The position numbers and the translations under genes are program-made. Source: Nannocystales bacterium (GTDB lineage: Bacteria; Myxococcota_A; Polyangia; Nannocystales; Nannocystaceae). From it: DNA of 64,000 nucleotides. This document shows positions 8,993-29,498 of this stretch, piece by piece. Under the pieces are notes generated by a model. That model had not been told where the DNA came from. It worked only from the letters and a program-made list of their open reading frames with translations, and made no database searches. Location of the stretch: contig JBOEGF010000043.1 in the NCBI GenBank assembly GCA_050633305.1, forward strand, positions 1-64,000, given 5' to 3'. Numbering within the stretch: the stretch's first letter is position 1; the number at the start of each line of letters is the position of its first letter.

Positions 8993-10945
8993 TCAGCCGG
9001 AGGCTAGCAGTGCGGAGACCGCTTCGAGCAGGCCGTCGATGGAGAATGGCTTGGGTAGGTAGGCCACGTTCTTCGCGAGGACGCCGTTCTCGAGGAGCGC
9101 GTCCTCCGGGTATCCCGAGACGTAGAGCACGCAGACATCGGGCCGGTCCTCGTGGAGCTTGGCGGCGAGCTCTCGACCATTCATGTGCGGCATGGCGACG
9201 TCCGTCAGCAAGAGGTCGATCGTACCGTCGTAGGCGCTGGACAACTCGAGTGCTTCTGCGCCACTGCCTGCCGCCAGGACTTCGTAGCCACTGCGTTGTA
9301 GACCTCGGACGGTCAGACGAAGCAACACCGGCTCGTCTTCTGCGACAAGGACGGTCGTCCCGCCTGCGCTCGGGGCGGCCTCGACCGGAACTTCTGGAGT
9401 CGGCTGGGCCTTGGCGCGTGGCCAATAGATCTCGAAGGAGGTTCCTGTCCCCTCCTCACTCTTGAGGTCGATGTGACCGTGGTTCTGGCGGACAGCACCG
9501 AACACCGTGGCAAGCCCGAGTCCGGTCCCCGCGTGCATCTTGGTGGTGAAGAACGGCTCGAACGCACGGTCGCGGGAGAGCTTTGACATGCCGGCGCCCG
9601 TATCGGTCACGGCCAGCACGACGTAGTCCCCCGGCTCGATCTCGGAGTGGGTTGTGGAGAACGTCGCGGCCAGTTGTACGTTGCGCGCGGCAATGCTCAG
9701 TTGGCCACCGTCGGGCATCGAGTCTCGTGCGTTGGCCACCAGGTTGAGGAGAATCTGGTCGAGCTGGGAGCGGTCGACCTCGATCGGCCACAAGTCGTCG
9801 GCGACTTCGACACGAGGCACGACGCCCGGGCCGAGCATCCGATGCAGAAGCCGCATGAGCTCGTCCACCGCGGTGGAGAGCTGCAGGACGGTGGGTTGAA
9901 TGATCTGCCGCCGAGCGAAGCTCAACAGTTGCGTGCACAGCTCCGCTGCTCGCCCGGAAGCGACGAGGACCTCGGTCAGGTCCTCGTGACGGCGGTCGGT
10001 CGCGGACAGCGTCTTGTGAACCGCCGCGGTGTAGTTGTCGATGATCGTCAGGAGGTTGTTCAGATCGTGGGCCACGCCGCCGGCGAGGCGCCCGATCGAT
10101 TCGAGCTTCTGGCTCTGCCGGAGCTGCGACTCGAGCTCCTGCATGGGTCGCAGGTCGGTCATCACGGCGGACACGTACCGTTGACCGTCGTCGTCCGGCT
10201 CGTGAACTACGAGGGCGAGCGAGACGGGAACCGGAGTCTGTGTCGCGCTGCGCAACTCAACTTCGGACTGCCAATGTCCCTGGTCGCGCGCGGTGGGAAG
10301 ACCGACCTCTGTGAGCCTGTCCGCGGAGGCGTCGGTGAGGAAGTCGGGGAGCGACCGGCCTTCGCTCGTTTCCTCGGTGAGCCCGGACAGCTCGAGGCCG
10401 GCAGGGTTGACGTAGGTGACGGGCCCGTCGAGTCGCCACAGCCCGACGAACGCGGGCGAGAGTTCGGCCATTCGTCGAAACCGTCGTGCGTCGAGCTCGG
10501 CGTTTCGGCGCTTGGTGACGTCCGGGAGGACGGCGACGGCCCCGACGAGTTCTCCGTCCGCGTAGACGGGGGCCGCATGCCCGCTGAGCCACCGCTCGTT
10601 GCCGGCGCCGTCTCGAAGGACAAAGTCTTCCCCCTCGACCACTTCCTCTCGCTGAAGCGCGCGGGGCAGGGGGAGCTCTTCGGGTGCGTAGGGGTCACCG
10701 TTGGGACGGAAGGCGTTCCATCCTGCGGGGTCGAGCTCGGCCGGGAGCTCGGTGAGCGCGTCCGAGTCCTCCGAGGTGCGAATCCCCAGTGCTGCCGGAT
10801 TCCACTCCTCGAGCTCCCCGCCGGGCGAGGACGCGATCAGAATGCCGGCGGGCGAGGCGCGGATCGCCGCCCGAAGGACGGTCACTTCGCGCTCGCGTTC
10901 CGCGAGTTGAGCCCGCAGTTTCTTCAGCTCGTCAGCAGTATCCAT
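8993..10945 (-). CDS. Hybrid sensor histidine kinase (two PAS domains, HisKA, HATPase, receiver; CckA-like)
   Basis: LAGGVAHDLNNLL H-box, NLVANARD N-box, DTGAGM, FEPFFTTK, GTGLGL, receiver LLTDVAMP; ATG at 10945. Confidence 0.95.
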   Translation of the reverse strand: MDTADELKKLRAQLAEREREVTVLRAAIRASPAGILIASSPGGELEEWNPAALGIRTSEDSDALTELPAELDPAGWNAFRPNGDPYAPEELPLPRALQREEVVEGEDFVLRDGAGNERWLSGHAAPVYADGELVGAVAVLPDVTKRRNAELDARRFRRMAELSPAFVGLWRLDGPVTYVNPAGLELSGLTEETSEGRSLPDFLTDASADRLTEVGLPTARDQGHWQSEVELRSATQTPVPVSLALVVHEPDDDGQRYVSAVMTDLRPMQELESQLRQSQKLESIGRLAGGVAHDLNNLLTIIDNYTAAVHKTLSATDRRHEDLTEVLVASGRAAELCTQLLSFARRQIIQPTVLQLSTAVDELMRLLHRMLGPGVVPRVEVADDLWPIEVDRSQLDQILLNLVANARDSMPDGGQLSIAARNVQLAATFSTTHSEIEPGDYVVLAVTDTGAGMSKLSRDRAFEPFFTTKMHAGTGLGLATVFGAVRQNHGHIDLKSEEGTGTSFEIYWPRAKAQPTPEVPVEAAPSAGGTTVLVAEDEPVLLRLTVRGLQRSGYEVLAAGSGAEALELSSAYDGTIDLLLTDVAMPHMNGRELAAKLHEDRPDVCVLYVSGYPEDALLENGVLAKNVAYLPKPFSIDGLLEAVSALLASG

Positions 10946-11307
10946 GGAGCCTCGCGACTGAGGGGAGCGTAGTGGACCCTCGCGGCGTACGGCTAGCCGT
11001 GTCGGGCAGCGCCGCATCGATGGCCGTTGGGGCCCGATCTGCGCCGATTCGCCGCCCATCGGGCCGCGGGGAATCTTCCGCGCGGAGCTTCCTGATGAGG
11101 GGTTGCCGATGGTGGGCGGTCGAGGACCGGGGCACTCGAGCCCCGCTCGGCAGCTGTTCCGGGCCGACGATTCGGTCCGTCCCCGCACCGCTCAGCCGCC
11201 ATCGAGCTACGACCGCCCCTCGCGCAGTGCGGTTCCGCGCCGCCGAACGTGCTCCGTTGCGTGGCCTTTGTCGACGGAAGCAACGGCGGGGACTTGGGTG
11301 TTTCCCC

Positions 11308-12090
11308 CTACGGGGTCGGGTCGCTCTCCTCGCCGAACCAGAGCACCGCGTATCCATCGGAGATCCCAACCCCGACCGCGTTCCACGTCAGGTTTGCCCA
11401 TGTTCCTTCGTTGAGCATCACAGCGTTGTGACCGGCGCTGCCCTTCCAAAGCTCGAGCGCTTCTGCAGGGCCGAGCGCGCCGCCGCCCCCCGCCGCGTTT
11501 TCATAGCCATTGCCCGGGTACGCGGTCAGCTCGCGAGGCTTGTCCCACATGCATTGCGCCGCAGCGTGATCGGAGGTGTAGCAGCACCCCGACCATGGCC
11601 CGGCGTCCGACCAGCTGTGGAGGTTGCATTCGGCGGCGCTGTGCGGCGCCTCCGTCGCGAGGTCTTGGACGTGGAGATCTCCGACGGTGCATAGCGAGCT
11701 GCTGGCCGGGATCGGTCCGAGGGCGTTCTCGGCTCGGTACTCGTTGAGCAGGTCGATGAGTGTCAACGCGTCAGGGCTGCAACCGGCAGGGGGGGAATCC
11801 CCGGTACTCTCGCTCCCCGCGTCGCCCGTCGACCCACCCGCGGTGGCCGAGGGATCCGTTGCGGTAGGGTCGGGATCGCTCGTCGTGGAATCATTGCTTG
11901 GATCGGCGTCGGTATCCGCGGTGGACGTGCTCGAGGGACCGGTCGGCGTGCTCGTCGTCGGAGCCCCAGACTCCCCGGTGGCACCGCTCTCGGTGTCGGG
12001 GTCCCAGGCGTCGGTCCCCGAATTTGCGCCGTCATCCGTATCGCAGGCCAGCATCCCCAGAAGCAGCGTCCAACAGCCGAATCTACGCAT
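11308..12090 (-). CDS. CAP (SCP) domain lipoprotein
   Basis: Lipobox GMLAC, Thr/Asp-rich linker, LNEYRAENAL...ENAA...WKGSAGHNAVML. Confidence 0.88.
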   Translation of the reverse strand: MRRFGCWTLLLGMLACDTDDGANSGTDAWDPDTESGATGESGAPTTSTPTGPSSTSTADTDADPSNDSTTSDPDPTATDPSATAGGSTGDAGSESTGDSPPAGCSPDALTLIDLLNEYRAENALGPIPASSSLCTVGDLHVQDLATEAPHSAAECNLHSWSDAGPWSGCCYTSDHAAAQCMWDKPRELTAYPGNGYENAAGGGGALGPAEALELWKGSAGHNAVMLNEGTWANLTWNAVGVGISDGYAVLWFGEESDPTP

Positions 12091-18174: not shown

Positions 18175-18588
18175 ATGCGACATCGCAAAGCAGGACGACA
18201 ACTCGGACGCAACTCGGCCCACCGCAAGGCGATGTGGCGCAACATGGTCACTTCGCTCATCGAGCATGGCCGTATTCGCACCACCGAAGCCAAGGCCAAG
18301 GAACTCCGCGGCTTCGCTGAGAAGACGATCACCAAGGCTATCCGCGTGGCAGACATCGTCGCCAAAGACGCGGATGACCGGAGCATGGAAGAGAAGACCC
18401 GCTTGGTTCACGCCGTGCGCGTCGCAGGCCGAATGGTCCGCGGTCGGGACCAGCTTCACAAGCTGTTCCACGAGGTTGCTCCTCAGCTCACCAGCCGTCC
18501 CGGTGGCTACACCCGGATCACCAAGGTCGGACCCCGACCCGGCGATGCAGCTCCGATGGCGTACGTCGAGATCATCTTCGACAACTGA
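18175..18588 (+). CDS. rplQ: 50S ribosomal protein L17
   Basis: MRHRKAGRQLGR, RPGGYTRI, RPGDAAPMA. Confidence 0.99.
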   Translation: MRHRKAGRQLGRNSAHRKAMWRNMVTSLIEHGRIRTTEAKAKELRGFAEKTITKAIRVADIVAKDADDRSMEEKTRLVHAVRVAGRMVRGRDQLHKLFHEVAPQLTSRPGGYTRITKVGPRPGDAAPMAYVEIIFDN

Positions 18589-18621: not shown

Positions 18622-18653
18622 AAAACCCCTCTGCCTTGGCAGCGGGGTTTTTT
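18622..18653 (+). terminator. Intrinsic terminator after rplQ
   Basis: aaaacccctctgcc-tt-ggcagcggggtttttt. Confidence 0.85.
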
Positions 18654-18743
18654 CGTGGTTGGGCAGCAGGCGAGGAGCGGCAGGAAACCGTCGCAATCGC
18701 AGGTTTTTTCGTTCATCGCGCCTGCGCGCCTACATTTGCGCAC

Positions 18744-18998
18744 ATGGGCAGTTCTGCGCTGGGGTCTCTCGTTCCCGTCACGCTGGTCCTCTGTGCGTTG
18801 CTGTTTGCGGCACTGTGGATGCGTCGACGGCTGGAGCAGGGGAGCGGAGGAGGCGAAAGCGTCCGCCTGACCGGCGAACACGCGGTCCACGTCGTGACCG
18901 TCGAGGGCCGTCGCTGGATGTTGGGAACCGGCCCGGCGGGTCCACCGACCTTGCTGGCGGAGCTCGCCACGACTCCGTCGGAGACGTCCGGTGGCTGA
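18744..18998 (+). CDS. fliO: FliO-like small bitopic membrane protein
   Basis: One TM helix ending WMRRR, then VRLTGEHAVHVVTVEGRRWMLGTG...LLAEL, matching the FliO beta-domain pattern; directly upstream of the fliP-like gene. Confidence 0.65.
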   Translation: MGSSALGSLVPVTLVLCALLFAALWMRRRLEQGSGGGESVRLTGEHAVHVVTVEGRRWMLGTGPAGPPTLLAELATTPSETSGG

Positions 18999-19602
18999 GG
19001 TGTCGCCGACGATCTGGATCTGGGTGGGGCTGGCGGCGCTCCCCTTGGTGCTCGCGTTGTGCACCGCGTTCACCAAGTCTCTGGTGGTCGTTGGCGCCCT
19101 GAGAACCGGACTGGGTGCGGAGACGTTCCTGCCGTGGCCCATCGTGTTGGCGGTCGCCACGGTGATCACAGGCGTGGTCATGTTGCCCGTCGCGAACGCG
19201 TTGGCCCTTGCTTTGGAGTCGGTTGGCGGCCTCCAGTCGGTGATCCAAGCTCCCGCGGAGCATGCCGCGGCGCTGTTGCAGCCGCTCTTGGAGTTCACGC
19301 ATCGACACGCCGATGCGGCCGAGCTGGAGTTCTTCTCGGAGTTGCAGGGGCGTTCGCCGCAGCAGGCATGGGTCAGCGTTCCCGCATTCCTGGTGACCGA
19401 GTTGACCGAGGCGTTGGCCATTGCGGTGGTGATCTTGGTGCCGTTCGTTCTCGCCGACCTCGTCGTCAGCCAAGCGCTGATGCTCGGTGGGCTGGCTTCC
19501 GTACCGCAGCCGCTGGTGAGCGTGCCGGTGAAGTTGTTGTTGTTTCTCGCTGTCGGCGGCTGGGACGTCGTCATCGGCGGACTGGTGAAGGGATACGCAT
19601 GA
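18991..19602 (+). CDS. fliP: Divergent FliP/SctR export-gate subunit
   Basis: CTAFTK..VV.ALRTGLG, PAFLVTELTEA, VPFVLADLVVS, SVPVKLLLFLAVGGW match the FliP family motifs. Confidence 0.9.
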   Translation: MAEVSPTIWIWVGLAALPLVLALCTAFTKSLVVVGALRTGLGAETFLPWPIVLAVATVITGVVMLPVANALALALESVGGLQSVIQAPAEHAAALLQPLLEFTHRHADAAELEFFSELQGRSPQQAWVSVPAFLVTELTEALAIAVVILVPFVLADLVVSQALMLGGLASVPQPLVSVPVKLLLFLAVGGWDVVIGGLVKGYA

Positions 19603-19892
19603 CCGAGTTGTTCGACATCGTTCGAGACATGTTGATGCTGGCAGTGACAGTGCTTCTGCCGCTGGTCCTGGCGGGCGTGGCGGGGGCCGTGATCGGCGGG
19701 CTCGTGGTCTTGTGGTTGGGATTGCAGGACCAAAGCCTGGCAACGATGATCCGCGGGCTTTCGGTTCTGGCCGCCCTGGCATTCACCGGCGCGGCCGCGT
19801 TCGACGGTGCGGTGGAGCAGACCGTCGCGGCGTGGGGCCATGTCGAGAGTCTCGGCCACGATGGCGTGGCCCTGGACCTCGATGGGTCTTGA
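19599..19892 (+). CDS. fliQ: Divergent FliQ/SctS export-gate subunit
   Basis: ATGA overlap with fliP; 97 aa with two hydrophobic helices and LQDQSL (cf. IQEQTL). Confidence 0.75.
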   Translation: MTELFDIVRDMLMLAVTVLLPLVLAGVAGAVIGGLVVLWLGLQDQSLATMIRGLSVLAALAFTGAAAFDGAVEQTVAAWGHVESLGHDGVALDLDGS

Positions 19893-20595
19893 GGCGCACC
19901 TCGCCGGGGCGTCGCTGCTCGCGTTGCGCTGGTTCGTCGTGCTTCGAGTTCAGCCGCACTGGACCGCCGCGGTGGGCCCACTTTGGTGGCCGGTCGCTGC
20001 CGCCATCGCGGTTGGCCTCGGGGCTAGCGCGGAGGCGTCTCCGGTCGTGCTGGAGTCGGCGTCCGCGTGGATCTCCGCGGTCGCCATGGAACTCCTGCTC
20101 GGGGCGGGCATCGGGATCCTTGCCAGCCTGCCCGCCTATGCGTTGCTGGGGGGGGCGACGGCCTCGGCCGCGGCATTGCGCACCACTCCGGCGCCGCTCG
20201 TTCGGATGAGCGTCAGCGGTGCCCTGGTCGCTGCGCTGTGTCTGCGTTTGCACCACCCTGCCTTGGTGGTTCTTCGGGACCAGGCGACTCTCCTCCCGCC
20301 GGCACGTCCCGAGCTGTGGCTGCCAGGGGTCTCCGAGCTCCCCGGGATTCTTGCGGTGCATCTGGACGGAATGCTGATGCTGGCGCTGACGCTCGCGACG
20401 CCGGTCCTGCTGACCGTCGTGATCTTGCGAGCGGTCGGGTCGGTCGTCGGCTCCGGACCCGCGGTCTCTCGGCCGATCTCGGGCGGTGTGGCCCCGGCGC
20501 TGGCAACCATCGGGGCCCTGATGGCGTTCGCCGCATCGTGGGCCGTGTATCCGGTGGGCTGGGCACGGAGCGCGGTGTCCGTCGCGGCCGGCTGA
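19882..20595 (+). CDS. fliR: Divergent FliR/SctT export-gate subunit
   Basis: Polytopic; AMELLLGAGIGIL (cf. E..IG...G) and LALTLATPVLL (cf. AL.LA.P); follows the fliQ-like gene; ATG at 19882. Confidence 0.7.
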   Translation: MGLEAHLAGASLLALRWFVVLRVQPHWTAAVGPLWWPVAAAIAVGLGASAEASPVVLESASAWISAVAMELLLGAGIGILASLPAYALLGGATASAAALRTTPAPLVRMSVSGALVAALCLRLHHPALVVLRDQATLLPPARPELWLPGVSELPGILAVHLDGMLMLALTLATPVLLTVVILRAVGSVVGSGPAVSRPISGGVAPALATIGALMAFAASWAVYPVGWARSAVSVAAG

Positions 20596-20637
20596 CAGGA
20601 CCCCGGTCGTTTCGTCGCGTTGCTACACTGCCCTGGC

Positions 20638-22035
20638 ATGGTTCGGGCATCGCTCGTTGCTGCGTTGGTGGCACTGGGAAGCTGTGGGGGCACCGAGCCG
20701 GAGCCGGTGCGGGACTCATTGCGCCAGCCCAGTGGTCTGGCGGTCTCCCCGAACGCGCAGTGGCTGTTTGTGACCAACGGCAACTGGGACCGGGTTCAGA
20801 AGGGCGGTACGCTGGCGGCGGTCGACCTCGTCGGGTTGCACGCCGCACTTGGGGGGGACGTCGGCGCCCCCGGAGCGACGCTCTCGTCCTCTCGTCCATG
20901 CCGCCGTCTTGCCGAGCGCGATCCCACCATCGAGTGCTTGCCCACAGCGTTCATCGATGCGGAGCAGACGGTCGTTTTCGGTGATGGCCTGGGCAACATC
21001 GCCCTGGACACTCGTGGTGCTGAGACCGCTGGCGGCCCCTACCGACTCCTGCTACCGCAGCGCGCACCCGCAGCGCTGGCTTGGGTCGACGTGGTCCCGA
21101 CCTCTGAGGGCATCGATCTCGACTGCGGCCAGGATGCATTCGGCGTCTGCGATGCCCAGCACCAGGTCCGGCGGTCCGAGGACGCCGTCGGCATCGGCCC
21201 GGACCCGTCTCGGGTCACGCTCGACGACCAGGGGTTTCGTTTCGCCTACGTCCCACACCTGCTCGACGGTGAACTCACCCTCATCGACCTCGATGGTGAA
21301 CTGGGTCCCGAGATCACCGCGCGGACGGACAGCGAGTTCTATCGGGCGGATCTCTTCGACGAGTTTGACGCCGCCGGCGGGTTCTCGGTCGCTGCGCGAG
21401 CGTGCGATCCCATGGCGGCCGCGGAGGTGACCGCCGCCTGCGAACGGCCGCTGCTGTACACGACCCACCGGTACTGGCCCGGGATCAAGTCGTTCACCGT
21501 CGCGGCAGGTCTGGAAGTCATCCTCTCCGGCAACGACACCCGGATCTCCGGGATCGGCGCCGAGAATGTCATCGCACGACCCATCATGGGGGACCTGGCC
21601 TTTGAGGATCCCGCGCTGGGGGACCGTTTGTTGCTCGTCCAAACAACGCCGGGGGCGCTTGCCCGGGTCGATACCTCGATCGACCCCGAGTCCGAGTCCC
21701 CACGCAACACACCGCTCGGCTCGGTTGCGCTGTGCAGCAACCCCAACATCCTGGCCGTTCACCGTCCTCCGAACGAGGAGGCCCTCGCGCTGGTGAGCTG
21801 CCTCAGCGACGGCGTGGTGGCCGTGGTCGGACTTGCGACGTTCACGGTTGTGCGGCGTGTGCTCGTGGGGGAAGGGGCCAACGAGATGGTGATCGACGCC
21901 GCGCGCGAACAGCTCTACGTCGCCAACTCGAGAGAGAACACGGTCTCGATCGTGAGCCTCGACCGGCAGAGCCCCGACTTCCTGCGGGAGTGGGCTCGGC
22001 TCGGAGTGGGCGCCGGCTCGCGCGACGAGCCCTGA
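20638..22035 (+). CDS. Lipoprotein, probable YncE/YVTN-like beta-propeller
   Basis: Lipobox ALGSC; PSGLAVSP...LFVTN, LYVANSRENTVSIV blades. Confidence 0.75.
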   Translation: MVRASLVAALVALGSCGGTEPEPVRDSLRQPSGLAVSPNAQWLFVTNGNWDRVQKGGTLAAVDLVGLHAALGGDVGAPGATLSSSRPCRRLAERDPTIECLPTAFIDAEQTVVFGDGLGNIALDTRGAETAGGPYRLLLPQRAPAALAWVDVVPTSEGIDLDCGQDAFGVCDAQHQVRRSEDAVGIGPDPSRVTLDDQGFRFAYVPHLLDGELTLIDLDGELGPEITARTDSEFYRADLFDEFDAAGGFSVAARACDPMAAAEVTAACERPLLYTTHRYWPGIKSFTVAAGLEVILSGNDTRISGIGAENVIARPIMGDLAFEDPALGDRLLLVQTTPGALARVDTSIDPESESPRNTPLGSVALCSNPNILAVHRPPNEEALALVSCLSDGVVAVVGLATFTVVRRVLVGEGANEMVIDAAREQLYVANSRENTVSIVSLDRQSPDFLREWARLGVGAGSRDEP

Positions 22036-22141
22036 GTCGTTTCGCGCCGCAACGCGGACCGCACCGGGACACGGCGCGACGGAGCGTCCCAGGCTCGGTG
22101 CTCGCCTCAACTCCGGGCCGTCTCCGGCCGAAGGGGTCCTC

Positions 22142-22825
22142 GTGCGCGCGCTCGCTCTCCTCGTGCTGTTGGCCACCGGGTGCCATGCCGTGCCCGCGGG
22201 AACCCCCGGGGCGTACGGTCAGCAGCGCTGGGTCGCGGCCGATGGCAGCTTTGGCGTGGAGTTCCTGAATCCCCCGTGGTCCATCGCGATCGAGGATTCC
22301 GGGAGGCTCGAGCTGGAGATCCCACCCGAGATCTTCGGCGTCGCGCTGGACGGCACATCTCCATCACACGCGTTTCAGGTGGGGCACGTTGATGGGCTGG
22401 AAGGGCTCGATGAGTTCACCTCCGAAGACGACGATGAAGGAGACACCGATGGGAGCGGTGACACCGACACCGACACCGATGACATGCCGTTGGACCCCGA
22501 CGTTGACCTCGGTGGGCTGCCGGAGTCGCTGGTGGGTCTGGACCTGCGAGATCCTTACGCGGTCGCCCGCGCCGAGCTCGATGTGCTGATCGAGGAGCAT
22601 GATGCACAGCTCGACTACGGGGTCTCCGACTTCGTGATGCCGACCGGAGTTCGCGCGGTGGAGTTCCAGGTTCAGATGAGTCCGGGCTTCTTCGTCCGGG
22701 CGTTCTACGTGGACGCTCGTCCGTCGCTGGTGCGCGCGACCTTCGTGTCGCTGTTCGACCTGGACACCGAAGACATCGCAACCATGGCCCGGTCGTTGGA
22801 CACGGTCGATCCGGAGGGCCGATGA
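22142..22825 (+). CDS. Hypothetical lipoprotein with acidic DT-rich linker
   Basis: Lipobox LATGC; EDDDEGDTDGSGDTDTDTDD. Confidence 0.7.
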   Translation: MRALALLVLLATGCHAVPAGTPGAYGQQRWVAADGSFGVEFLNPPWSIAIEDSGRLELEIPPEIFGVALDGTSPSHAFQVGHVDGLEGLDEFTSEDDDEGDTDGSGDTDTDTDDMPLDPDVDLGGLPESLVGLDLRDPYAVARAELDVLIEEHDAQLDYGVSDFVMPTGVRAVEFQVQMSPGFFVRAFYVDARPSLVRATFVSLFDLDTEDIATMARSLDTVDPEGR

Positions 22826-23808
22826 TCAGCTTGTTCCTCGCTGCGGGGCTCTGGTTGGGTCCCCCGGTGTTGCCGGACCTTCCCGCCGAGCGTGCGGCCA
22901 AGGCTCGTGCCGACGAGCAGGCCCGACTCGAGGCTGAGGCCGAGGCGAAGGCGGAAGCCGACGCGAAGGCGGAAGCCAAGGCCGAGGCCCAGCGCAACGC
23001 TCCCCAAGCGCAGCAGCCCCAGCCGACGAGCCCCTCCACAGGCCCGACCCAGGGTGCAGTCGCTCCCACGGCGCCGCAGAGACCCCAGAAGCCGCAGTCC
23101 AAGCCCGTCACAGCTGGCCAGCTTCGAGCCGCCGCCCCCCAGGCTCAGCTCGAGGCCGCGTCTGCGTCCGAGCTGGCGGCCTGGGCCGAAGACGATGCAC
23201 TCTATGGTTCGCAGGGAGAGCCTGACGATGCGCTTCGTCGTCCGCCATCGAAGCCTTCGGGCCGTCACGCACCGACGCGGACCGCGACGCGGCTTCGTAC
23301 GAGCACCGCGTTGGAGCAACCATCCCGGCCACCGCCGCCAACGCGCAGCGCGGCGTTCGTATTTGGATACCGGATCTTCAACACCTCGGACGCGTTCGCC
23401 CGTGCTCAGTCGTGGCACGTGGGGTCGCTGGAGGTCACGCCCGTGCGCCGCTGGGTGCGGCTCAACCTGATCACGGAGGTTGGCGCAGAAGGAGGCGCAG
23501 CGGCCCGGGGCGGAGACCGAGCGGACCTGTTCATGATGCAGAAGGCCGGCTTGGGCGTGCAGTCGCCCGGTTGGCTGACCCCGTTTGTCGAGTTCCAAGG
23601 CGGTGCCGGGGTCGCCCGGGTCGAGCTGTTCGACCGCAACGATCTGCTCTTGCTCTGGACCCTAGGTGTCGACGCGGGTGCCCAATGGGCGGTGACCAAG
23701 TGGATGTGGATCCACGCCTCGGTGGGTTGGATCCGCCCGACGTTCCAACGCCCCGAACGCGCCGTCTACCACGACAGCTTCACGTTCAAGCTCGGCCTTG
23801 GCTTCTAG
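22822..23808 (+). CDS. Secreted protein with Ala/Pro-rich linker and C-terminal outer-membrane beta-barrel-like domain
   Basis: Signal-like N-terminus, EAEAKA/Pro-Gln stretch, amphipathic strands, terminal FKLGLGF (BAM-type signal); ATGA overlap with the upstream gene. Confidence 0.7.
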   Translation: MISLFLAAGLWLGPPVLPDLPAERAAKARADEQARLEAEAEAKAEADAKAEAKAEAQRNAPQAQQPQPTSPSTGPTQGAVAPTAPQRPQKPQSKPVTAGQLRAAAPQAQLEAASASELAAWAEDDALYGSQGEPDDALRRPPSKPSGRHAPTRTATRLRTSTALEQPSRPPPPTRSAAFVFGYRIFNTSDAFARAQSWHVGSLEVTPVRRWVRLNLITEVGAEGGAAARGGDRADLFMMQKAGLGVQSPGWLTPFVEFQGGAGVARVELFDRNDLLLLWTLGVDAGAQWAVTKWMWIHASVGWIRPTFQRPERAVYHDSFTFKLGLGF

Positions 23809-23884
23809 GACACTCGTGCGAGGGCTGACCCGGTCCTGCCAAGGCGGCCCCGACGCTTGGTCGACGCGAAGGCGTCTCGAGATC

Positions 23885-26146
23885 TCAGATCCCTTTGACC
23901 CGAACCGGCGCGGCGATGAAGTTGGTCAGCCCTTGGCCGTGTTGTCCGTAGGTGTTGTCGCCTAGGCACTGCACCTGGCCGTTGGCCCGCAGGGCGCAGG
24001 TGTGCTCGCCGCCCGCGGCGACTGAGCGGAAGTCACCGCGGAAGTTCGTGCGAACCGGAGTCCGGCTGAGCCCGCCCTCTCGGCCCATGCGCCCTTTGCC
24101 GTTGTCGCCCCAGCAAACCACGGCGCCGTCCTTGAGCACGACGCACGTGTGATCGAGGCCGGACGAGATGGACACCGCGTTGGTGATGCCCTTGACCGGG
24201 ACCCGGGTCGTCCACGTTGTTTGCGTCCCCGAGCCGAGCTGGCCCTTGTCGTTGCCGCCCCAACAGGCGACCTGCCCCGTCCGTCGACGGGCGCAGGAGT
24301 GCGTCGCACCCGGGGCAACTTCGGTCGCGTCGGTGAGTTTCGCGACACTCACAGGCGCGGCTTGTGGCGTTCCCAGCTCAGCTGCGCCGGCCCCATTGCC
24401 GAGCTGACCCGCGCGGTTGGTGCCCCAGCAGACCACACCGCCGAGCTTCCGGACCGCGCAGGAGTGCTGGGCTCCCAACTCGATGCCCGACGCGTCGCGC
24501 AAGCCCTGGGCGACGACCTTTCGGGCGTTCGCACCGCCGGCGGGCGCTCCGGTCTGCGAGAACTCGCTGTCGCCCCAACAGGTGACTTGTCCGCCGCGGC
24601 GGCGAGCACAGGTGTGTGCGGCTCCGGCCGAGACTTCAACCGCGTCGCTGATCTGGGGCACGACCGTGGGCCTGGGAACACCCCGCTTTTTTCCGGCGCC
24701 AAGTTGGCCGGAGGTGTTGCTTCCCCAACACCAGACGCGGCCGCTCTTCGAGGCCGCGCACGCGTGCTCGCTTCCGGCGGCCACGGAGACCGCATCGGCG
24801 ATCCCTGTCGCGGGCACAGGGGCATCGGCGTCCGACTTGCTGCCATCGCCGAGCTGCCCCTTGTCGTTACGCCCCCAGCAGCTGACCGAGCCGTCCCTCC
24901 GCCTCGCGCAGGTGAAGCTCGTGCCGGACGTCACTTCGACCGCATCGTCGAGCGCAGAGACTCTGGGTGCGTCGCCGGCCGAGGACTTCCCGGCTGCGCC
25001 GTTGCCGAGCGCGCCGCCATCGTTACTGCCCCAGCAGTAGACCTCTCGACCAGGCTTGAGCGCGCAGGCATGCGACGCGCCAACCGACACGCTTTGCGCA
25101 CCTGCGATGCCCTGCACGAGGGCCGGGGCCCGCACGGAAGCTGTGGAGCCATTCCCGAGCCGGCCATCGGCTGCGGCGCCCCAGCAGCGCAGCGTGCCGT
25201 TGTCCAGACGCGCGCAGGTGCTGGCTTCTCCCGCGTCGACGGTCGCCACGCCCGCCACGGCGACGGTGCTGGGCTTGAGCGCTGCGGCCCCTGCGACTCC
25301 GGTCGCCTGTCCCGCCCCGTTGGCACCCCAGCACGCGACGCGGCCGGCCGCACTCCGGACACAGGTGTGGAACTTGCCGGCCGTGATCTGCGTCGCGCCC
25401 TCGGAGCCACGGACCAGGTGCGGACGCGCGCCGCCGACGCGGCCGCCGTCGCCCATCTGCCCCTGGTCGCCCTGGCCGAAGCACACCGCGGCCGCACCTT
25501 TGCGGATGACACAGGTATGACCCGCCCCCGCGGCCACACCGGTGAGCTGAGCCAAGCCGGGCACGTCGGTTGCTGCCAGCGTATTGGGGCGGCCTTCCGT
25601 CCCCTGCTGACGCCATCGGTTCTCACCCCAGCACGCCAGCGTTCCACCGCGGCGGATGACACAGGTGTGGTCCTCGCCGGCCGCGATCGCAACCGCGTCG
25701 TCCACGTTGCGAACCGTGACCGGGAGGGTGGATCGTTTTCCCGTGCCGCCTCGTCCGTCACCGAGCTGACCCCGGTCGTTGAGCCCCCAGCACGCGACCG
25801 TGCCGGTCTTCTTGAGCGCACACGCGTGGGCACGCCCCAAGACGAGGTCCGTCGCGTCGGTGAGCCGCTCGACCAACGGGCCCGCGGTGTTTCGGTCGAG
25901 GGTCTTTCCATCGCCGAGTTGGCCGCGGTTGCCAGCACCCCAACACTGCGCGCGCCCCGAGCGTCGTCGGCTGCAGGTGAATCCATCGCCGGCTTCGACC
26001 TCGACGATGGGGTCGTTGGCCAGCGACGGGAGCCCCGCGCCGGCTCCGGGCTTCGTCGTCTGGGGGGAAGATGACGGCGATGACGACGGTGTGCACGCAG
26101 CTGCGACGAACAGCAGGATCAGGCTCGGGAGCGCAGCAGCTCGCAT
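23885..26146 (-). CDS. RCC1/BLIP-II repeat lipoprotein
   Basis: Lipobox AAAC; about 14 repeats of HTC.....G.V.CWG.N..GQLG. Confidence 0.93.
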   Translation of the reverse strand: MRAAALPSLILLFVAAACTPSSSPSSSPQTTKPGAGAGLPSLANDPIVEVEAGDGFTCSRRRSGRAQCWGAGNRGQLGDGKTLDRNTAGPLVERLTDATDLVLGRAHACALKKTGTVACWGLNDRGQLGDGRGGTGKRSTLPVTVRNVDDAVAIAAGEDHTCVIRRGGTLACWGENRWRQQGTEGRPNTLAATDVPGLAQLTGVAAGAGHTCVIRKGAAAVCFGQGDQGQMGDGGRVGGARPHLVRGSEGATQITAGKFHTCVRSAAGRVACWGANGAGQATGVAGAAALKPSTVAVAGVATVDAGEASTCARLDNGTLRCWGAAADGRLGNGSTASVRAPALVQGIAGAQSVSVGASHACALKPGREVYCWGSNDGGALGNGAAGKSSAGDAPRVSALDDAVEVTSGTSFTCARRRDGSVSCWGRNDKGQLGDGSKSDADAPVPATGIADAVSVAAGSEHACAASKSGRVWCWGSNTSGQLGAGKKRGVPRPTVVPQISDAVEVSAGAAHTCARRRGGQVTCWGDSEFSQTGAPAGGANARKVVAQGLRDASGIELGAQHSCAVRKLGGVVCWGTNRAGQLGNGAGAAELGTPQAAPVSVAKLTDATEVAPGATHSCARRRTGQVACWGGNDKGQLGSGTQTTWTTRVPVKGITNAVSISSGLDHTCVVLKDGAVVCWGDNGKGRMGREGGLSRTPVRTNFRGDFRSVAAGGEHTCALRANGQVQCLGDNTYGQHGQGLTNFIAAPVRVKGI

Positions 26147-26298
26147 CGGGGGGATGATAGCGCCGATCGGTTAGAAGCGACTCGCGGGATGGGCGGTGAC
26201 CCGTCTGTGCAGGGCGTGCACTGCGGGCTGTCGTCGAAGCGGCCTCCCGCGGTCGAGACGTTTGGTGATCTGCGGCGATTGGGCTAAGAGGGTCGAGC

Positions 26299-26949
26299 GT
26301 GCCCGGCGACCGCACCATGATGCCTTCCGCAGCGCGAGCACGGCGGGGCTGGAGGGCGGGGCTGCGGGCGCAGTCCCGTTGGCTGGATACAGCCGCAGGA
26401 CTCGCGGCCGTCGGTCTCGTGTTGGGTGCCATCCCGTGGTCGACGGTGTCGGGGTGGGGCGCGCGCTGGCAGGCCGCGGTGGTGCAACCCGCGTTGATGG
26501 GTCCGCTTCTCGTGGAGGCGGCATGGGGCGCAGCCGCGATCGGGCTGGCGCTGTGCTTGGGCTTCGGCGCTGCCCGGGTGCTCTGTGCGGGGCTCACCGG
26601 ACGGGTGGGGGCGGTTGAGCGAAGTCTCCTGCCCCGGCTCCGCCCCGCACCGGTGGGGTCGGGCGCTCTTCCGCTGGTGCTGCTCTCGTTGATCGCGCTT
26701 CTTGGCGTGGGCGTTGCGGTCCGTGGGGTGGCGGCGGGCTCGGCCCGGTCTGTGGATGCGACGGCCCGGGGGGTCCTGGCGTTGTGGACCTCGTGGCCGC
26801 AACGGGCGTGGGTGGCCGCACTCATCGTTCTGGGTATCGTCGGGTGGGTCGAGCTTGTGCTGAGTCGTCGCCGGATCACGGCCGCCTTGGCGCAGACCCG
26901 ACAGCAGGTTCGTGATGACCTCAAGGCGCGCTCGGGGGGACACCGATGA
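26299..26949 (+). CDS. flhB: Divergent FlhB/SctU-like protein, membrane domain only
   Basis: N-terminal DRTMMPSAARARRGWRAG...SRWL (cf. EKTE.PT..R...AR..G...S.EL); four hydrophobic segments; C-terminal LAQTRQQVRDDLKARSG (cf. LKMTKQEVK.E.K..EG); stops before the NPTH domain. Confidence 0.7.
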   Translation: MPGDRTMMPSAARARRGWRAGLRAQSRWLDTAAGLAAVGLVLGAIPWSTVSGWGARWQAAVVQPALMGPLLVEAAWGAAAIGLALCLGFGAARVLCAGLTGRVGAVERSLLPRLRPAPVGSGALPLVLLSLIALLGVGVAVRGVAAGSARSVDATARGVLALWTSWPQRAWVAALIVLGIVGWVELVLSRRRITAALAQTRQQVRDDLKARSGGHR

Positions 26950-29498
26950 GCGGGACTCGTGGCGTGATGATCTCGGTCGCGGTTCCGGTCAGTCTCGACC
27001 GGCCGTTCACCTACCGGCTACCACCGACCCTCGGCGAGTCGTTGGCTCCCGGAACTCGGGTGTTGGTCCCGTTGGGGCCTCGTGCGCTGATCGGCGTGGT
27101 GCGGCCCGAGGACAATCCCGTCGCGCCCGACCCGTCGAAGGTCAAAGACATCTACGGGGTCCTGGATCCTGAGGGCCCATGCCTTCCACCGGACGTCGTG
27201 GCGCTGTGCGAGTGGATGGCGGGCTACTACGTCGCCCCGATCGGTGAGGTCTATCGTCTGGCGCTTCCTGGCATGTTGACCTCAGCGGATGCGCGGCGCG
27301 TGGTGGTGACGGAGGCGGGCCAAGCCGCGTGGCGGGGCATCGAGGCGCCTCTGCTCGGCACGCCCCCGCCTCCGATGAACAACGCGGCGACCCGGCTGCT
27401 CGAGGCGCTCGTGCACGCGGGTACCGACGGCCTGCCCGTCGCGAAGCTCCCGGCGATCCGGCCGCGCATTGCGGGGAGTCTGCTGCGGATGACCGAGCTC
27501 GAAGCCGCCGGACTCGTCGAGACGCTCTGGCCCGAAGCCGGGGTGCGTACCCGGACCGAGCTGCATCTGCGCCGAACCGATTACCTGCGGGGAAGTGGAG
27601 CCGATGAGCCCGCCGTTCAAAAGATCGTCGGGCGTAGCAAGCAGCGCCGCGCCCTCTTGGACTACCTCGAGGCTGCACCTGATGATGACCCTTGGGTTCC
27701 GATCAGTGAGCTGCGCGGTCCGTTTCCGCGGGTAAGGCAGCTTGTTCTGCCTCTGGTCGATCACCGACTCGTCGCGACAGAAGAGCGTTCGCGGTCACTT
27801 GACCCGTTCGAGACTCAAGAGTCTCCCCCAACGACGCCCCAGGCTCCCACCGCGGACCAAGAGTCGGCGCTCCAACGGCTGGCCGAACTGACCGATGCGC
27901 GGGCGTTTGCCTCGGTCCTGCTGCACGGGATCACCGGGAGCGGGAAGACGGAGGTCTATCTGCAGCACATTGCCCGGCTTCGCGATGCCGGGCGGGGGGC
28001 CATCGTCTTGGTCCCCGAGATCGCGTTGACGCCGCAGCTCTCGGAGCGGTTCCGGGCGCGGTTCGGGGACGAGATCGCGGTGCTCCACAGCGGTCTGACC
28101 CCGAGGCAGCGACTCGATGCGTGGGAGCAGATCCGAAAAGGGGAGCGCCCCATCGTGATCGGAGCCCGCTCGGCCGTCTTTGCGCCGGTTCCCGACCTGG
28201 GGACGATCGTGGTCGACGAGGAGCACGACGGGTCGTTCAAGCAAGAGGAGGGCATCCGCTACCACGCACGAGACGTCGCGCTCGTCCGGGCGCGGACGCT
28301 GGGTGCGTCGGTGGTGTTGGGCTCAGCAACCCCGTCGCTGGAGTCCTACGACAACGCGCGCAGTGGTCGCTACGTGTACTTGGAACTCCGAACCCGGCCC
28401 ACGCCGCGCCCGCTGCCCAAGGTCGAGATCGTGCCGCTGTCGGTCCACCGTCCCGATGGCGACTCCATGATGTCCGCGCTGCTCCGCGACGCGATTCGGG
28501 AGACGGTCGATGCCGGGGAGCAGGCGATCGTGTTTCTCAACCGCCGCGGCTACACCACGACATTGTGCTGTGAAGACTGCGGGAGCTTTCAGCAGTGCCC
28601 CGACTGCAGTGCGCCATCGATGACGTACCACCTCGGTCGCAACCGCCTGATGTGCCACCTGTGCGGCTATATCGAGGCGACGCCCCAGCAGTGTCGGGAC
28701 TGTGGCAGCACCAAGCTCGCCCACGGCGGGGCGGGCACCGAGAAAGTCGAGGTTGCACTCTCGCGGGCCCTCGAAGGGATCCGGGTCTTGCGGCTCGATC
28801 GCGACGCGTCTCGGGGCAAGCGATTGCTCGACACGCTCTCGGCATTTCGCCGTCACGAGGCGGATGTCTTGGTGGGGACTCAGATGCTCTCCAAAGGGCA
28901 CGACTTCCCCGGCGTCACGCTGGTGGGGATCCTGCAGGCCGACCACGGCCTTGGCCTGCCCGATCTTCGCGCCAGCGAGCGTACGTTCCAGCTGCTCACC
29001 CAGGTGTCGGGGCGGGCTGGGCGGGGGGAGCGACCCGGGCGGGTGCTCGTGCAAGCGTATGCCGTCGAGCATCCCGCCATCCGCCATGCCGCGACCCACG
29101 ACTTTGAGGGGTTTGCCACCCAGGAACTCGCGGATCGCGAACGGATGGGGAATCCGCCGTACGGTCACCTGACCCTGATTCGTGTTCAGGGACTGGACGA
29201 ACGCCGAGTACAGGCCCGCGCCGAGACGCTGGCCCGGTTCCTCAAGGCCGGGGTCGACAAGCTACGCACCCGGCAAACCGACCCCTTCGCGGTCCCTGTT
29301 GCCACCCTCCTGGGCCCCGTCCCCTCGCCGATCAAGAAGATCAACCGCCGGGTCCGATTCCAGATGCTGCTGCGTGCGCAGCAACGGGGCGCTCTGCGCT
29401 GGTTGCTCAGTCATCTCCGCCCCCACTTGGGGAACGATGGCAGTGGCGCCGCGCAAACCCTCGCTATCGCCGATGTCGATCCTCAGTCTCTGCTGTGA
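26946..29498 (+). CDS. priA: Primosomal protein N' (replication restart helicase)
   Basis: GITGSGKTEVY, VLVPEIALTPQ, DEEH, Cys-rich Zn region, GTQMLSKGHDFP, QVSGRAGRG. Confidence 0.98.
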   Translation: MSGTRGVMISVAVPVSLDRPFTYRLPPTLGESLAPGTRVLVPLGPRALIGVVRPEDNPVAPDPSKVKDIYGVLDPEGPCLPPDVVALCEWMAGYYVAPIGEVYRLALPGMLTSADARRVVVTEAGQAAWRGIEAPLLGTPPPPMNNAATRLLEALVHAGTDGLPVAKLPAIRPRIAGSLLRMTELEAAGLVETLWPEAGVRTRTELHLRRTDYLRGSGADEPAVQKIVGRSKQRRALLDYLEAAPDDDPWVPISELRGPFPRVRQLVLPLVDHRLVATEERSRSLDPFETQESPPTTPQAPTADQESALQRLAELTDARAFASVLLHGITGSGKTEVYLQHIARLRDAGRGAIVLVPEIALTPQLSERFRARFGDEIAVLHSGLTPRQRLDAWEQIRKGERPIVIGARSAVFAPVPDLGTIVVDEEHDGSFKQEEGIRYHARDVALVRARTLGASVVLGSATPSLESYDNARSGRYVYLELRTRPTPRPLPKVEIVPLSVHRPDGDSMMSALLRDAIRETVDAGEQAIVFLNRRGYTTTLCCEDCGSFQQCPDCSAPSMTYHLGRNRLMCHLCGYIEATPQQCRDCGSTKLAHGGAGTEKVEVALSRALEGIRVLRLDRDASRGKRLLDTLSAFRRHEADVLVGTQMLSKGHDFPGVTLVGILQADHGLGLPDLRASERTFQLLTQVSGRAGRGERPGRVLVQAYAVEHPAIRHAATHDFEGFATQELADRERMGNPPYGHLTLIRVQGLDERRVQARAETLARFLKAGVDKLRTRQTDPFAVPVATLLGPVPSPIKKINRRVRFQMLLRAQQRGALRWLLSHLRPHLGNDGSGAAQTLAIADVDPQSLL

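Follow-up and report, generated by a model that had tools for sequence, protein, structure and literature searches.

Myxobacterial type III secretion systems (T3SSs) have been placed mainly in the Myxococcales or Myxococcia (PMC10196010, PMC11821767 and bioRxiv 10.64898/2026.07.10.737566, in the portions available). One of them, the 'short' Myxo non-flagellar T3SS, is reported only in the Cystobacterineae and has an ATPase and an inner rod (Abby and Rocha 2012, PMC3459982, sections available); it is presumably the T3SS(2) of Myxococcus xanthus, encoded by MXAN_5643-5654. That organism's needle-less T3SS* (MXAN_2434-2464), which is associated with prey lysis, is described as having a sorting platform and an ATPase and as working with the Kil/Tad pilus (PMC12075869). 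A more distant comparison is the CORE of Bacillus subtilis, where FliO, FliP, FliQ, FliR and FlhB, together with FlhA, are reported to act in nanotube formation without FliI (PMC6456723). The system considered here is an export gate encoded in a 64,000-nucleotide stretch of DNA from a Nannocystales bacterium (contig JBOEGF010000043.1, positions 1 to 64,000), referred to as the window. The feature is real and is a variant of the myxobacterial non-flagellar T3SS that is so far undescribed in the literature searched, most subscription journals lying outside that search.

Five open reading frames (ORFs) of the window, all intact and on the plus strand, encode the gate. They are written with an asterisk under flagellar or Sct names (fliO*, fliP* = sctR*, fliQ* = sctS*, fliR* = sctT* and flhB* = sctU*), as are two partners encoded elsewhere, FlhA* = SctV* and the mini-SctJ, SctJ*. 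The source genome (11.0 Mb, 92% complete) is labelled G000 and other genomes of the family G001, G003, G004 and so on. With their flanking landmarks the genes are as follows.

18175..18588, plus strand: rplQ, ribosomal protein L17 (Pfam PF01196), an upstream landmark outside the system
18629..18657, plus strand: terminator-like hairpin (18629-18647) and T tract after rplQ, from a sequence scan
18744..18998, plus strand: fliO*, FliO-like assembly factor, 84 aa (TIGR03500 E 3e-4, Pfam FliO E 0.065)
18991..19602, plus strand: sctR*, FliP/SctR family, 203 aa (Pfam FliP E 4e-34)
19599..19892, plus strand: sctS*, FliQ/SctS family, 97 aa (Bac_export_3 E 1e-4, below cut-off)
19882..20595, plus strand: sctT*, FliR/SctT family, 237 aa, from orthologues and predicted fold
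26299..26949, plus strand: sctU*, FlhB/SctU family, 216 aa comprising just the membrane part and linker (Pfam Bac_export_2 E 6e-6)
26946..29498, plus strand: priA (Pfam), a downstream landmark

This layout bears out a sequence-only reading of the same DNA, which had described four coupled ORFs in O-P-Q-R order after the rplQ terminator and an FlhB-like ORF 5.7 kb further on, joined to priA, with all frames intact; the distance is measured from sctT*, and the stop of sctU* overlaps the start of priA. The terminator scan is weak when taken alone, since five sites were found against 4.3 expected by chance. The profile searches which that reading had proposed gave a divided answer: FliP* and FlhB* matched, FliQ* and both profile matches of FliO* fell below cut-off, and sctT* itself had no match in Pfam or NCBIfam. 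The latter was recovered through its orthologues, which lie above the Bac_export_1 cut-off in four of four relatives, and through its predicted model (pLDDT 88), whose 13 best Foldseek matches are FliR/SctT chains at TM 0.50-0.62, the best with E 0.011 and probability 1.0 and none reaching E 0.001. That the 64 kb hold no other flagellar gene also stood up, as tblastn with 29 queries from the genome's own flagellar cluster, together with FlhA*, matched only fliP*; the FliN query was out of frame, but a domain search of the window found no FliN domain.

The five window genes are assigned by sequence to the non-flagellar (Sct) export-gate lineage. Trees were made for R and V only, and in them FlhA* and FliP* cluster with injectisome SctV and SctR and with stand-alone export-gate genes of many other Myxococcota families, apart from the flagellar copies, with support of 100 (FastTree, 78 rows), 100 (66 rows), 100 (IQ-TREE, 34 rows) and 100/99 (LG+C20, membrane domain, 25 rows). 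One uncertain reference, UBA8530, lies outside the clade in the 66-row FliP* tree, and family f41 is the sister group in the 66-, 34- and 25-row trees. Grouping with the flagellar genes of the same class is rejected (p-AU 0.0003 for FlhA and 0.01 for FliP), and with it an origin by duplication from the lineage's own flagellar genes. At the site diagnostic for SctR versus FliP, a lysine is found in all 58 family proteins, in 21/21 stand-alone copies and in 13 of the 14 Sct references, whereas all 15 flagellar FliP have an arginine; sctR* also scores 102.5 bits against the NCBIfam yscR model versus 95.7 bits against fliP. The earlier description of the gate as flagellar-type and distinct from Sct systems is thus not supported. 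Nor does its premise that FliO is absent from injectisome-type systems hold, as both non-flagellar T3SSs of M. xanthus are reported to have FliO (PMC12248157, portion available) and the related non-flagellar loci of other families likewise carry it. Given the M. xanthus systems, FliO* is no sign of flagellar origin.

The gate is not the orphan it had been called, since FlhA/SctV and SctJ partners are encoded, unlinked, on other contigs. A second, divergent flhA (sctV*) lies at G000:C5:280631-282568 with no T3SS genes adjoining, and sctJ* lies at G000:C11:136499-137050 on the minus strand. The latter encodes a 184-residue lipoprotein that was found with a profile of relatives' SctJ (E 3e-4) and scores under the Pfam cut-off (PF01514). 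Its model matches EscJ, PrgK domain 2 and FliF RBM2 (best E 3e-6), with an rmsd of 1.9 Å over 85 columns against PrgK D2. In the alignment the first ring-building motif is deleted right behind the lipobox cysteine, so that the part kept is the gate-facing one. The genes of the system are spread over at least three loci in G000.

A genome-wide search also found a full flagellar cluster on contig C15 (198400-237500, about 198-237 kb; L012-L014), with mot, hook, rod, fliF/G/I and flagellin genes. The possibility, raised beforehand, that such a set makes use of the window genes is therefore realised only as far as the presence of the set is concerned, since the cluster has its own fliO/P/Q/R, full-length flhB and flhA. 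The cluster thus occurs in a member of a family noted for gliding, and its flagellar FliO has 396 aa and a long N-terminal extension.

The gate is a fixed trait of the Nannocystaceae and is under purifying selection. The same gate occurs in named records of Nannocystis punicea, N. pusilla, N. radixulma, Enhygromyxa salina, Plesiocystis pacifica and Paraliomyxa miuraensis, and the family, here 72 genomes of which 42 are of high quality, is taken as Nannocystaceae by inference from such relatives. FliP*, FlhA* and SctJ* are each present in 42/42 high-quality genomes. Across all 72, FliP* is found in 65, a count that drops four genomes without a match, one with a weak match only and two with the flagellar copy only (none of the seven being of high quality) and takes in three divergent copies (G016-G018) on synteny. 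FlhA* is found in 68/72 and SctJ* in 67/72, one of them a weak match, whilst the figure for FlhB* (53/72; 29/42 high-quality) comes from a single-protein query that is weak for so fast a gene. FliF is patchy by genus (23/72; 17/42 high-quality), and of the 42 high-quality genomes, all with the gate, 25 lack FliF. Of the 39 named loci, 32 have rplQ ahead of the gate and 35 have fliO* ahead of fliP*, and priA follows flhB* in 28 of 30 loci. As kin are not independent, these counts denote fixation in one family and not repeated evolution.

Selection was gauged as NG86 dN/dS for the seven gate genes against G004, G001 and G003, with rpoA, rplQ and priA as controls; the values are rough because dS is near 1. 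Against G004 they are 0.05 (O), 0.11 (R), 0.14 (S), 0.17 (T), 0.17 (U), 0.09 (V) and 0.21 (J), compared with 0.05, 0.10 and 0.05 for rpoA, rplQ and priA respectively. Against G001 and G003 they span 0.10-0.45, SctJ* being highest (0.40-0.45); fliO* stays at 0.05-0.12 and all seven genes below 0.5. A dN/dS near 1 or frameshifts in relatives had been named as signs of decay, and what was found was a frameshift in the sctU* of G003 and a split in the sctV* of G036. The view of a retained, selected and minimal gate, operating in most of the family independently of a flagellum, is upheld.

The anatomy of the proteins is that of a reduced machine. In SctR* the three gasket positions hold no methionine in 52/58 proteins and one in 6/58, compared with two or three in 14/15 flagellar and 13/14 Sct references, and the Gln-Gln pair of the glutamine belt has no glutamine in 54/58. 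SctT* is about 12 residues shorter across the plug region (23 family rows aligned), and the Glu/Lys salt bridge of SctS* is replaced by Asp/Arg in 39/39. SctU* of the window aligns to positions 2-224 of the 335 in the Bac_export_2 profile only and has no NPTH domain; intact copies in the family measure 196-219 aa and NPTH occurs in 0/30, versus 13/16 of the SctU from stand-alone loci of other families. A family-specific conserved motif, which canonical FlhB/SctU do not have, sits in the SctU* loop ahead of the last membrane helix and is a candidate partner interface. The charged residues of SctV*, presumably those of proton-coupled export, are retained: the counterparts of E. coli FlhA R85, R94, R147, R154, D158, D199, D208 and D249 are identical in 33/33 and that of D170 in 32/33, with K203 an arginine in 32/33. 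D2 is missing in 32/33. One SctV* (L331:7041-9467) has a long low-complexity repeat inserted where the others miss D2.

The ATPase is the part most securely absent. Of 48 family genomes, 18 have a FliI/SctN above the TIGR01026 cut-off, exactly the 18 with FliF and with one copy each, and none of the 30 FliF-negative ones does, compared with 29/31 genomes of other families that had been chosen for having export-gate genes. In 5/5 genomes SctN matches fell only at F-type ATPase loci and in weak noise, and G000 has no SctN besides the flagellar FliI. A second F-type ATPase alpha/beta pair lies at G000:C36:122000-127700, besides the pair on C43. The stator, C-ring and inner rod of the system were likewise not found: SctQ/FliN, SctL/FliH, SctO and SctI did not appear in G000 outside the flagellar cluster, nor FliN (0/4), FliH (0/4) or SctI in the 3-4 non-flagellated genomes searched per family model. 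SctI was found neither with PF17001, in 4/4 family genomes, where the control G084 reached only E 0.006, nor with a custom profile; a fast-evolving copy could go unseen. No substrate, chaperone or rod was found, nor in G000 a separate gene for the FlhB C-terminal domain. Secretin, SctD, needle and translocon genes were not seen at the three loci inspected, no genome-wide search for them having been made.

Other Myxococcota families retain more of these parts. A sctJ-K-L-N-O locus is kept in f17, f20, f36 and f52; all of these but f52 also have sctI, and in f17 and f36 a sigma gene precedes the locus. Families f20 and f52 keep fliO-R-S-T-U too, with a full SctU, and the closest named homologues of f20 are proteins of Bradymonadaceae, Persicimonas and Lujinxingia. 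Families f2 and f5 have scattered genes, a retained SctN, a SctV without D2 and, in the two genomes tested, a full SctJ. Across f2, f3 and f5 there are fliO-sctR pairs or a lone sctR (L178:9206-10334, L186:9906-10927, L175:9797-10453 and L176:9635-10372), with sctU, sctV, sctN and sctJ elsewhere and sctN often beside a dnaJ-like gene. One f41 genome and one f24 genome (G176, G082) are also without SctN above cut-off, and the f41 locus (L174:7313-10279) has a degenerate SctU; these losses may be parallel or shared reductions. In the Nannocystaceae only pilZ-sigma-sctJ* remains of the sctJ-K-L-N-O locus, and their system would, on the functional reading favoured below, form the end of a stepwise reduction series across the Myxococcota.

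The short Myxo T3SS shares with this system a conserved and, as far as the inspected loci show, secretin-less and needle-less Sct apparatus with SctJ and FliO, and f17, f20, f36 and f52 show most of its R-S-T-U-V-N-J-I inventory. In the Nannocystaceae SctR, S, T, U and V are present in the non-flagellar clade, as far as the R and V trees go, and SctJ is present in truncated form. Unlike the short system, neither an ATPase nor an inner rod was found, the genes occupy at least three loci, and a defined functional element is gone from each of SctU, SctV, SctJ, SctR and SctT. As neither ATPase nor inner rod turned up, the Nannocystaceae system is filed as a derived relative and not as a member of the short Myxo family. 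Like the T3SS* of M. xanthus it would be an inner-membrane export apparatus without secretin, needle or translocon, none having been seen at the three loci inspected, but neither the platform nor the ATPase described for T3SS* (PMC12075869) was found, and in contrast to injectisomes the sorting platform (SctQ, L, N, O) did not come to light. As for the Kil/Tad partner, the available portion of one survey reports no Tad-like genes in Nannocystales (PMC10196010).

With the flagellar export apparatus the system has in common the O-P-Q-R gene order, the FliR* fold, the conserved FlhA charged residues and the presence of FliO. It differs in its separate clade, SctR-type lysine, SctJ-type lipoprotein in place of FliF, truncated FlhB without NPTH, lack of any FliH/I/J or C-ring that could be found, and occurrence without flagella. 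The six gene families of the nanotube CORE (PMC6456723, portion available) are all present, but the COREs tested have an intact gasket, plug and FlhB. The same source suggests CORE-only species, naming Myxococcus, and of the gate and ring genes its Table S2 credits Plesiocystis pacifica with just FliP and FlhA, entering zero for FliQ, FliR, FlhB and EscJ. Other traces of the system are similarly partial. SctV and SctR in Polyangia are mentioned in passing (PMC11509652, portion available), and a FliO survey, in the part available, lists no FliO in two Nannocystaceae rows. Databases name SctR* 'EscR/YscR/HrcR family' and SctV* 'FHIPEP family', SctS* and SctT* as hypothetical or FliQ/FliR, and SctJ* as hypothetical.

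Between sctT* and sctU* the window holds four further genes.

20638..22035, plus strand: YncE-like beta-propeller lipoprotein, linked by synteny only
22142..22825, plus strand: lipoprotein with no Pfam or NCBIfam match, a variable neighbour (8/20 loci)
22822..23808, plus strand: probable small outer-membrane beta-barrel, Pro/Ala-rich in its N-terminal part, a variable neighbour (7/20 loci)
23885..26146, minus strand: RCC1-repeat lipoprotein (Pfam), a variable insert (5/20 loci)

The propeller gene directly follows sctT* in 19/20 loci, and in 36/39 named loci, which makes its product an unproven candidate member of the system on synteny only. It is parted from the gate in G024, and propeller homologues occur in one genome without a FliP or FlhA match; a complex prediction of SctR*, SctT* and the propeller scored 0.00 against a mark of 0.32, which is evidence neither way. 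For the beta-barrel, ESM Atlas leads of 0.92-0.94 go to OMP_b-brl/PagL-like clusters.

A T-rich TTGG-type element lies about 30-40 bases before the starts at window 18690-18746 and upstream of sctJ* in L402-L431. Together with a possible -10 box just ahead of the ATG it suggests, as judged by eye, that these genes have their own promoters and leaderless starts; an upstream k-mer search found no common motif other than T-rich/TTGG stretches. In RNA contigs of near relatives the ribosomal genes are covered up to rplQ and the gate is patchy or low, but contigs cannot rank expression and were not used. At 8996-12054 of the window two minus-strand genes, named by eye as a PAS/sensor-like protein and a lipoprotein, break the ribosomal superoperon between rplO and secY. 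Directly upstream of sctJ* a PilZ-domain gene and a sigma-70 family gene are conserved (L399:10135-11188 = G000:C11:137134-138187), hinting at a possible c-di-GMP-linked regulation, and in several genomes a 135-aa helical protein with no NCBIfam match stands tail to tail with sctJ* (L399:6589-6999 = G000:C11:133588-133998). A tryptophan 2,3-dioxygenase-family gene follows sctV* (L015:12605-13714, G000:C5), as it does in most other family loci inspected, and in some family loci sctV* is preceded by MlaE/MlaD-like ABC genes.

A heavily reduced type III relative for which no ATP motor, needle or channel seals were found, stripped down and yet kept under selection, probably serves a purpose other than the ordinary injection of proteins or the building of flagella. 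Our preferred reading, to which we give a probability of about 0.45, is that the SctR*-V* system is a proton-coupled, non-secreting inner-membrane pore or platform. Rather more tentatively, all seven genes may form an ATPase-free, seal-free, proton-coupled pore or platform that no longer secretes protein, is the end of the reduction series and represents a natural minimal CORE. By comparison with homologous structures, FliO* would help to build an R5S4T1 core, SctU* would close its cytoplasmic side, and a SctV* ring and a single-motif SctJ* collar would surround it. Classical polypeptide movement would have been given up, the parts that handle substrate and seal the channel (ATPase, stator, C-ring, inner rod, SctU cytoplasmic domain, SctV D2, glutamine belt, methionine gasket and plug) all being lost or not found, with the SctV charged network and the assembly salt bridges nevertheless fixed. 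Under the control of SctV*, a pore or platform coupled to the proton-motive force might then let small molecules pass or help to form membrane conduits, as has been put forward for the six-gene CORE. One study reports that gasket and plug matter solely while a gate is secreting, and that Salmonella gates deprived of the FlhB C-terminal domain assemble but show neither secretion nor leak (PMC8239009, portion available). On these data the loss of secretion would be a single economical cause of all the other losses.

Several points weigh against the non-secreting pore or platform. In Salmonella, secretion survives deletion of the plug, ATPase mutants retain part of their function, and gasket mutants are improved by FliQ E46D, the state fixed in SctS* (PMC8239009), all of which would fit a slow ATPase-free translocase. 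The nanotube claim is reportedly disputed (PMC7532143). In the 18 flagellated genomes the flagellar ATPase might be borrowed, and other small divergent parts may be hidden, since SctJ* itself escaped PF01514 and a profile of relatives' SctJ in 3/3 family genomes. The trees contained no Myxococcus sequence, and a homologue search for a named Myxococcus SctR gave none. The branches of FlhA* and FliP* are long, and the test does not reject a grouping with all flagellar rows (p-AU 0.079 for FlhA* and 0.075 for FliP*), one that would put them at the base of the Sct clade. A proton-driven, ATPase-independent export of one or a few unchaperoned substrates to the periplasm is a close, somewhat less likely alternative, in which hydrophobic residues and the tighter Asp/Arg clamp of SctS would stand in for the gasket and plug. 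The fixed charged residues of SctV*, the Asp/Arg pair in 39/39 SctS*, the retained gate-facing part of SctJ and the Salmonella results just given favour such a translocase, as does the proposal of translocation for the Myxo systems by Abby and Rocha (PMC3459982). It has to contend with a SctU* that is without its cytoplasmic domain in every intact copy checked, a loss that halts secretion in Salmonella, with the leakage and fitness cost of a gate that secretes in the absence of gasket or plug (PMC8239009), and with the failure to find a rod, substrate or chaperone.

A closed scaffold or sensor, which never conducts and anchors a signalling or envelope complex, perhaps with the propeller lipoprotein or the sigma/PilZ pair, is unlikely. 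Gates without the FlhB C-terminal domain do remain shut (PMC8239009), and the tight synteny of gate with propeller and of sctJ* with sigma and PilZ genes, like the new SctU* motif, would suit this role; the SctV* charged network, kept in 32-33/33, is less well explained by a purely structural role, and the propeller is found both away from the gate and in a genome without it. A decaying relic is very unlikely and can be rejected on purifying selection and fixed presence. The long branches, the SctJ* ratios against two relatives and the two damaged copies do point that way, but all seven genes stay below 0.5, at 0.05-0.21 against G004, R*, V* and J* are universal in the high-quality genomes, and the deletions are clean and shared. 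A second or accessory flagellar gate is scarcely credible: FliF occurs in G000 and 22 other family genomes, and the names FliO and FliA-like sigma are of flagellar origin, but the many FliF-less genomes with a gate and the full gate of the flagellar cluster itself largely refute it, and duplication from flagellar genes is rejected.

A universal sealing mechanism made up of methionine gasket, plug and salt bridges has been put forward for type III systems (PMC8239009), and here a whole family has dropped gasket, plug, ATPase and FlhB switch with the machine still under purifying selection. The result is a naturally minimal machine in which to ask what such a gate does without seals, ATPase and FlhB switch, and it extends the secretin-less T3SSs beyond the Myxococcia to the cultured genera Nannocystis, Enhygromyxa, Plesiocystis and Paraliomyxa. 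Three questions become testable there: what the second myxobacterial T3SS does, whether the CORE/nanotube claim holds in a species without a flagellum, and how the path from flagellum to injectisome began. If the preferred reading is true, the Nannocystaceae would have turned a type III export apparatus into a different machine.

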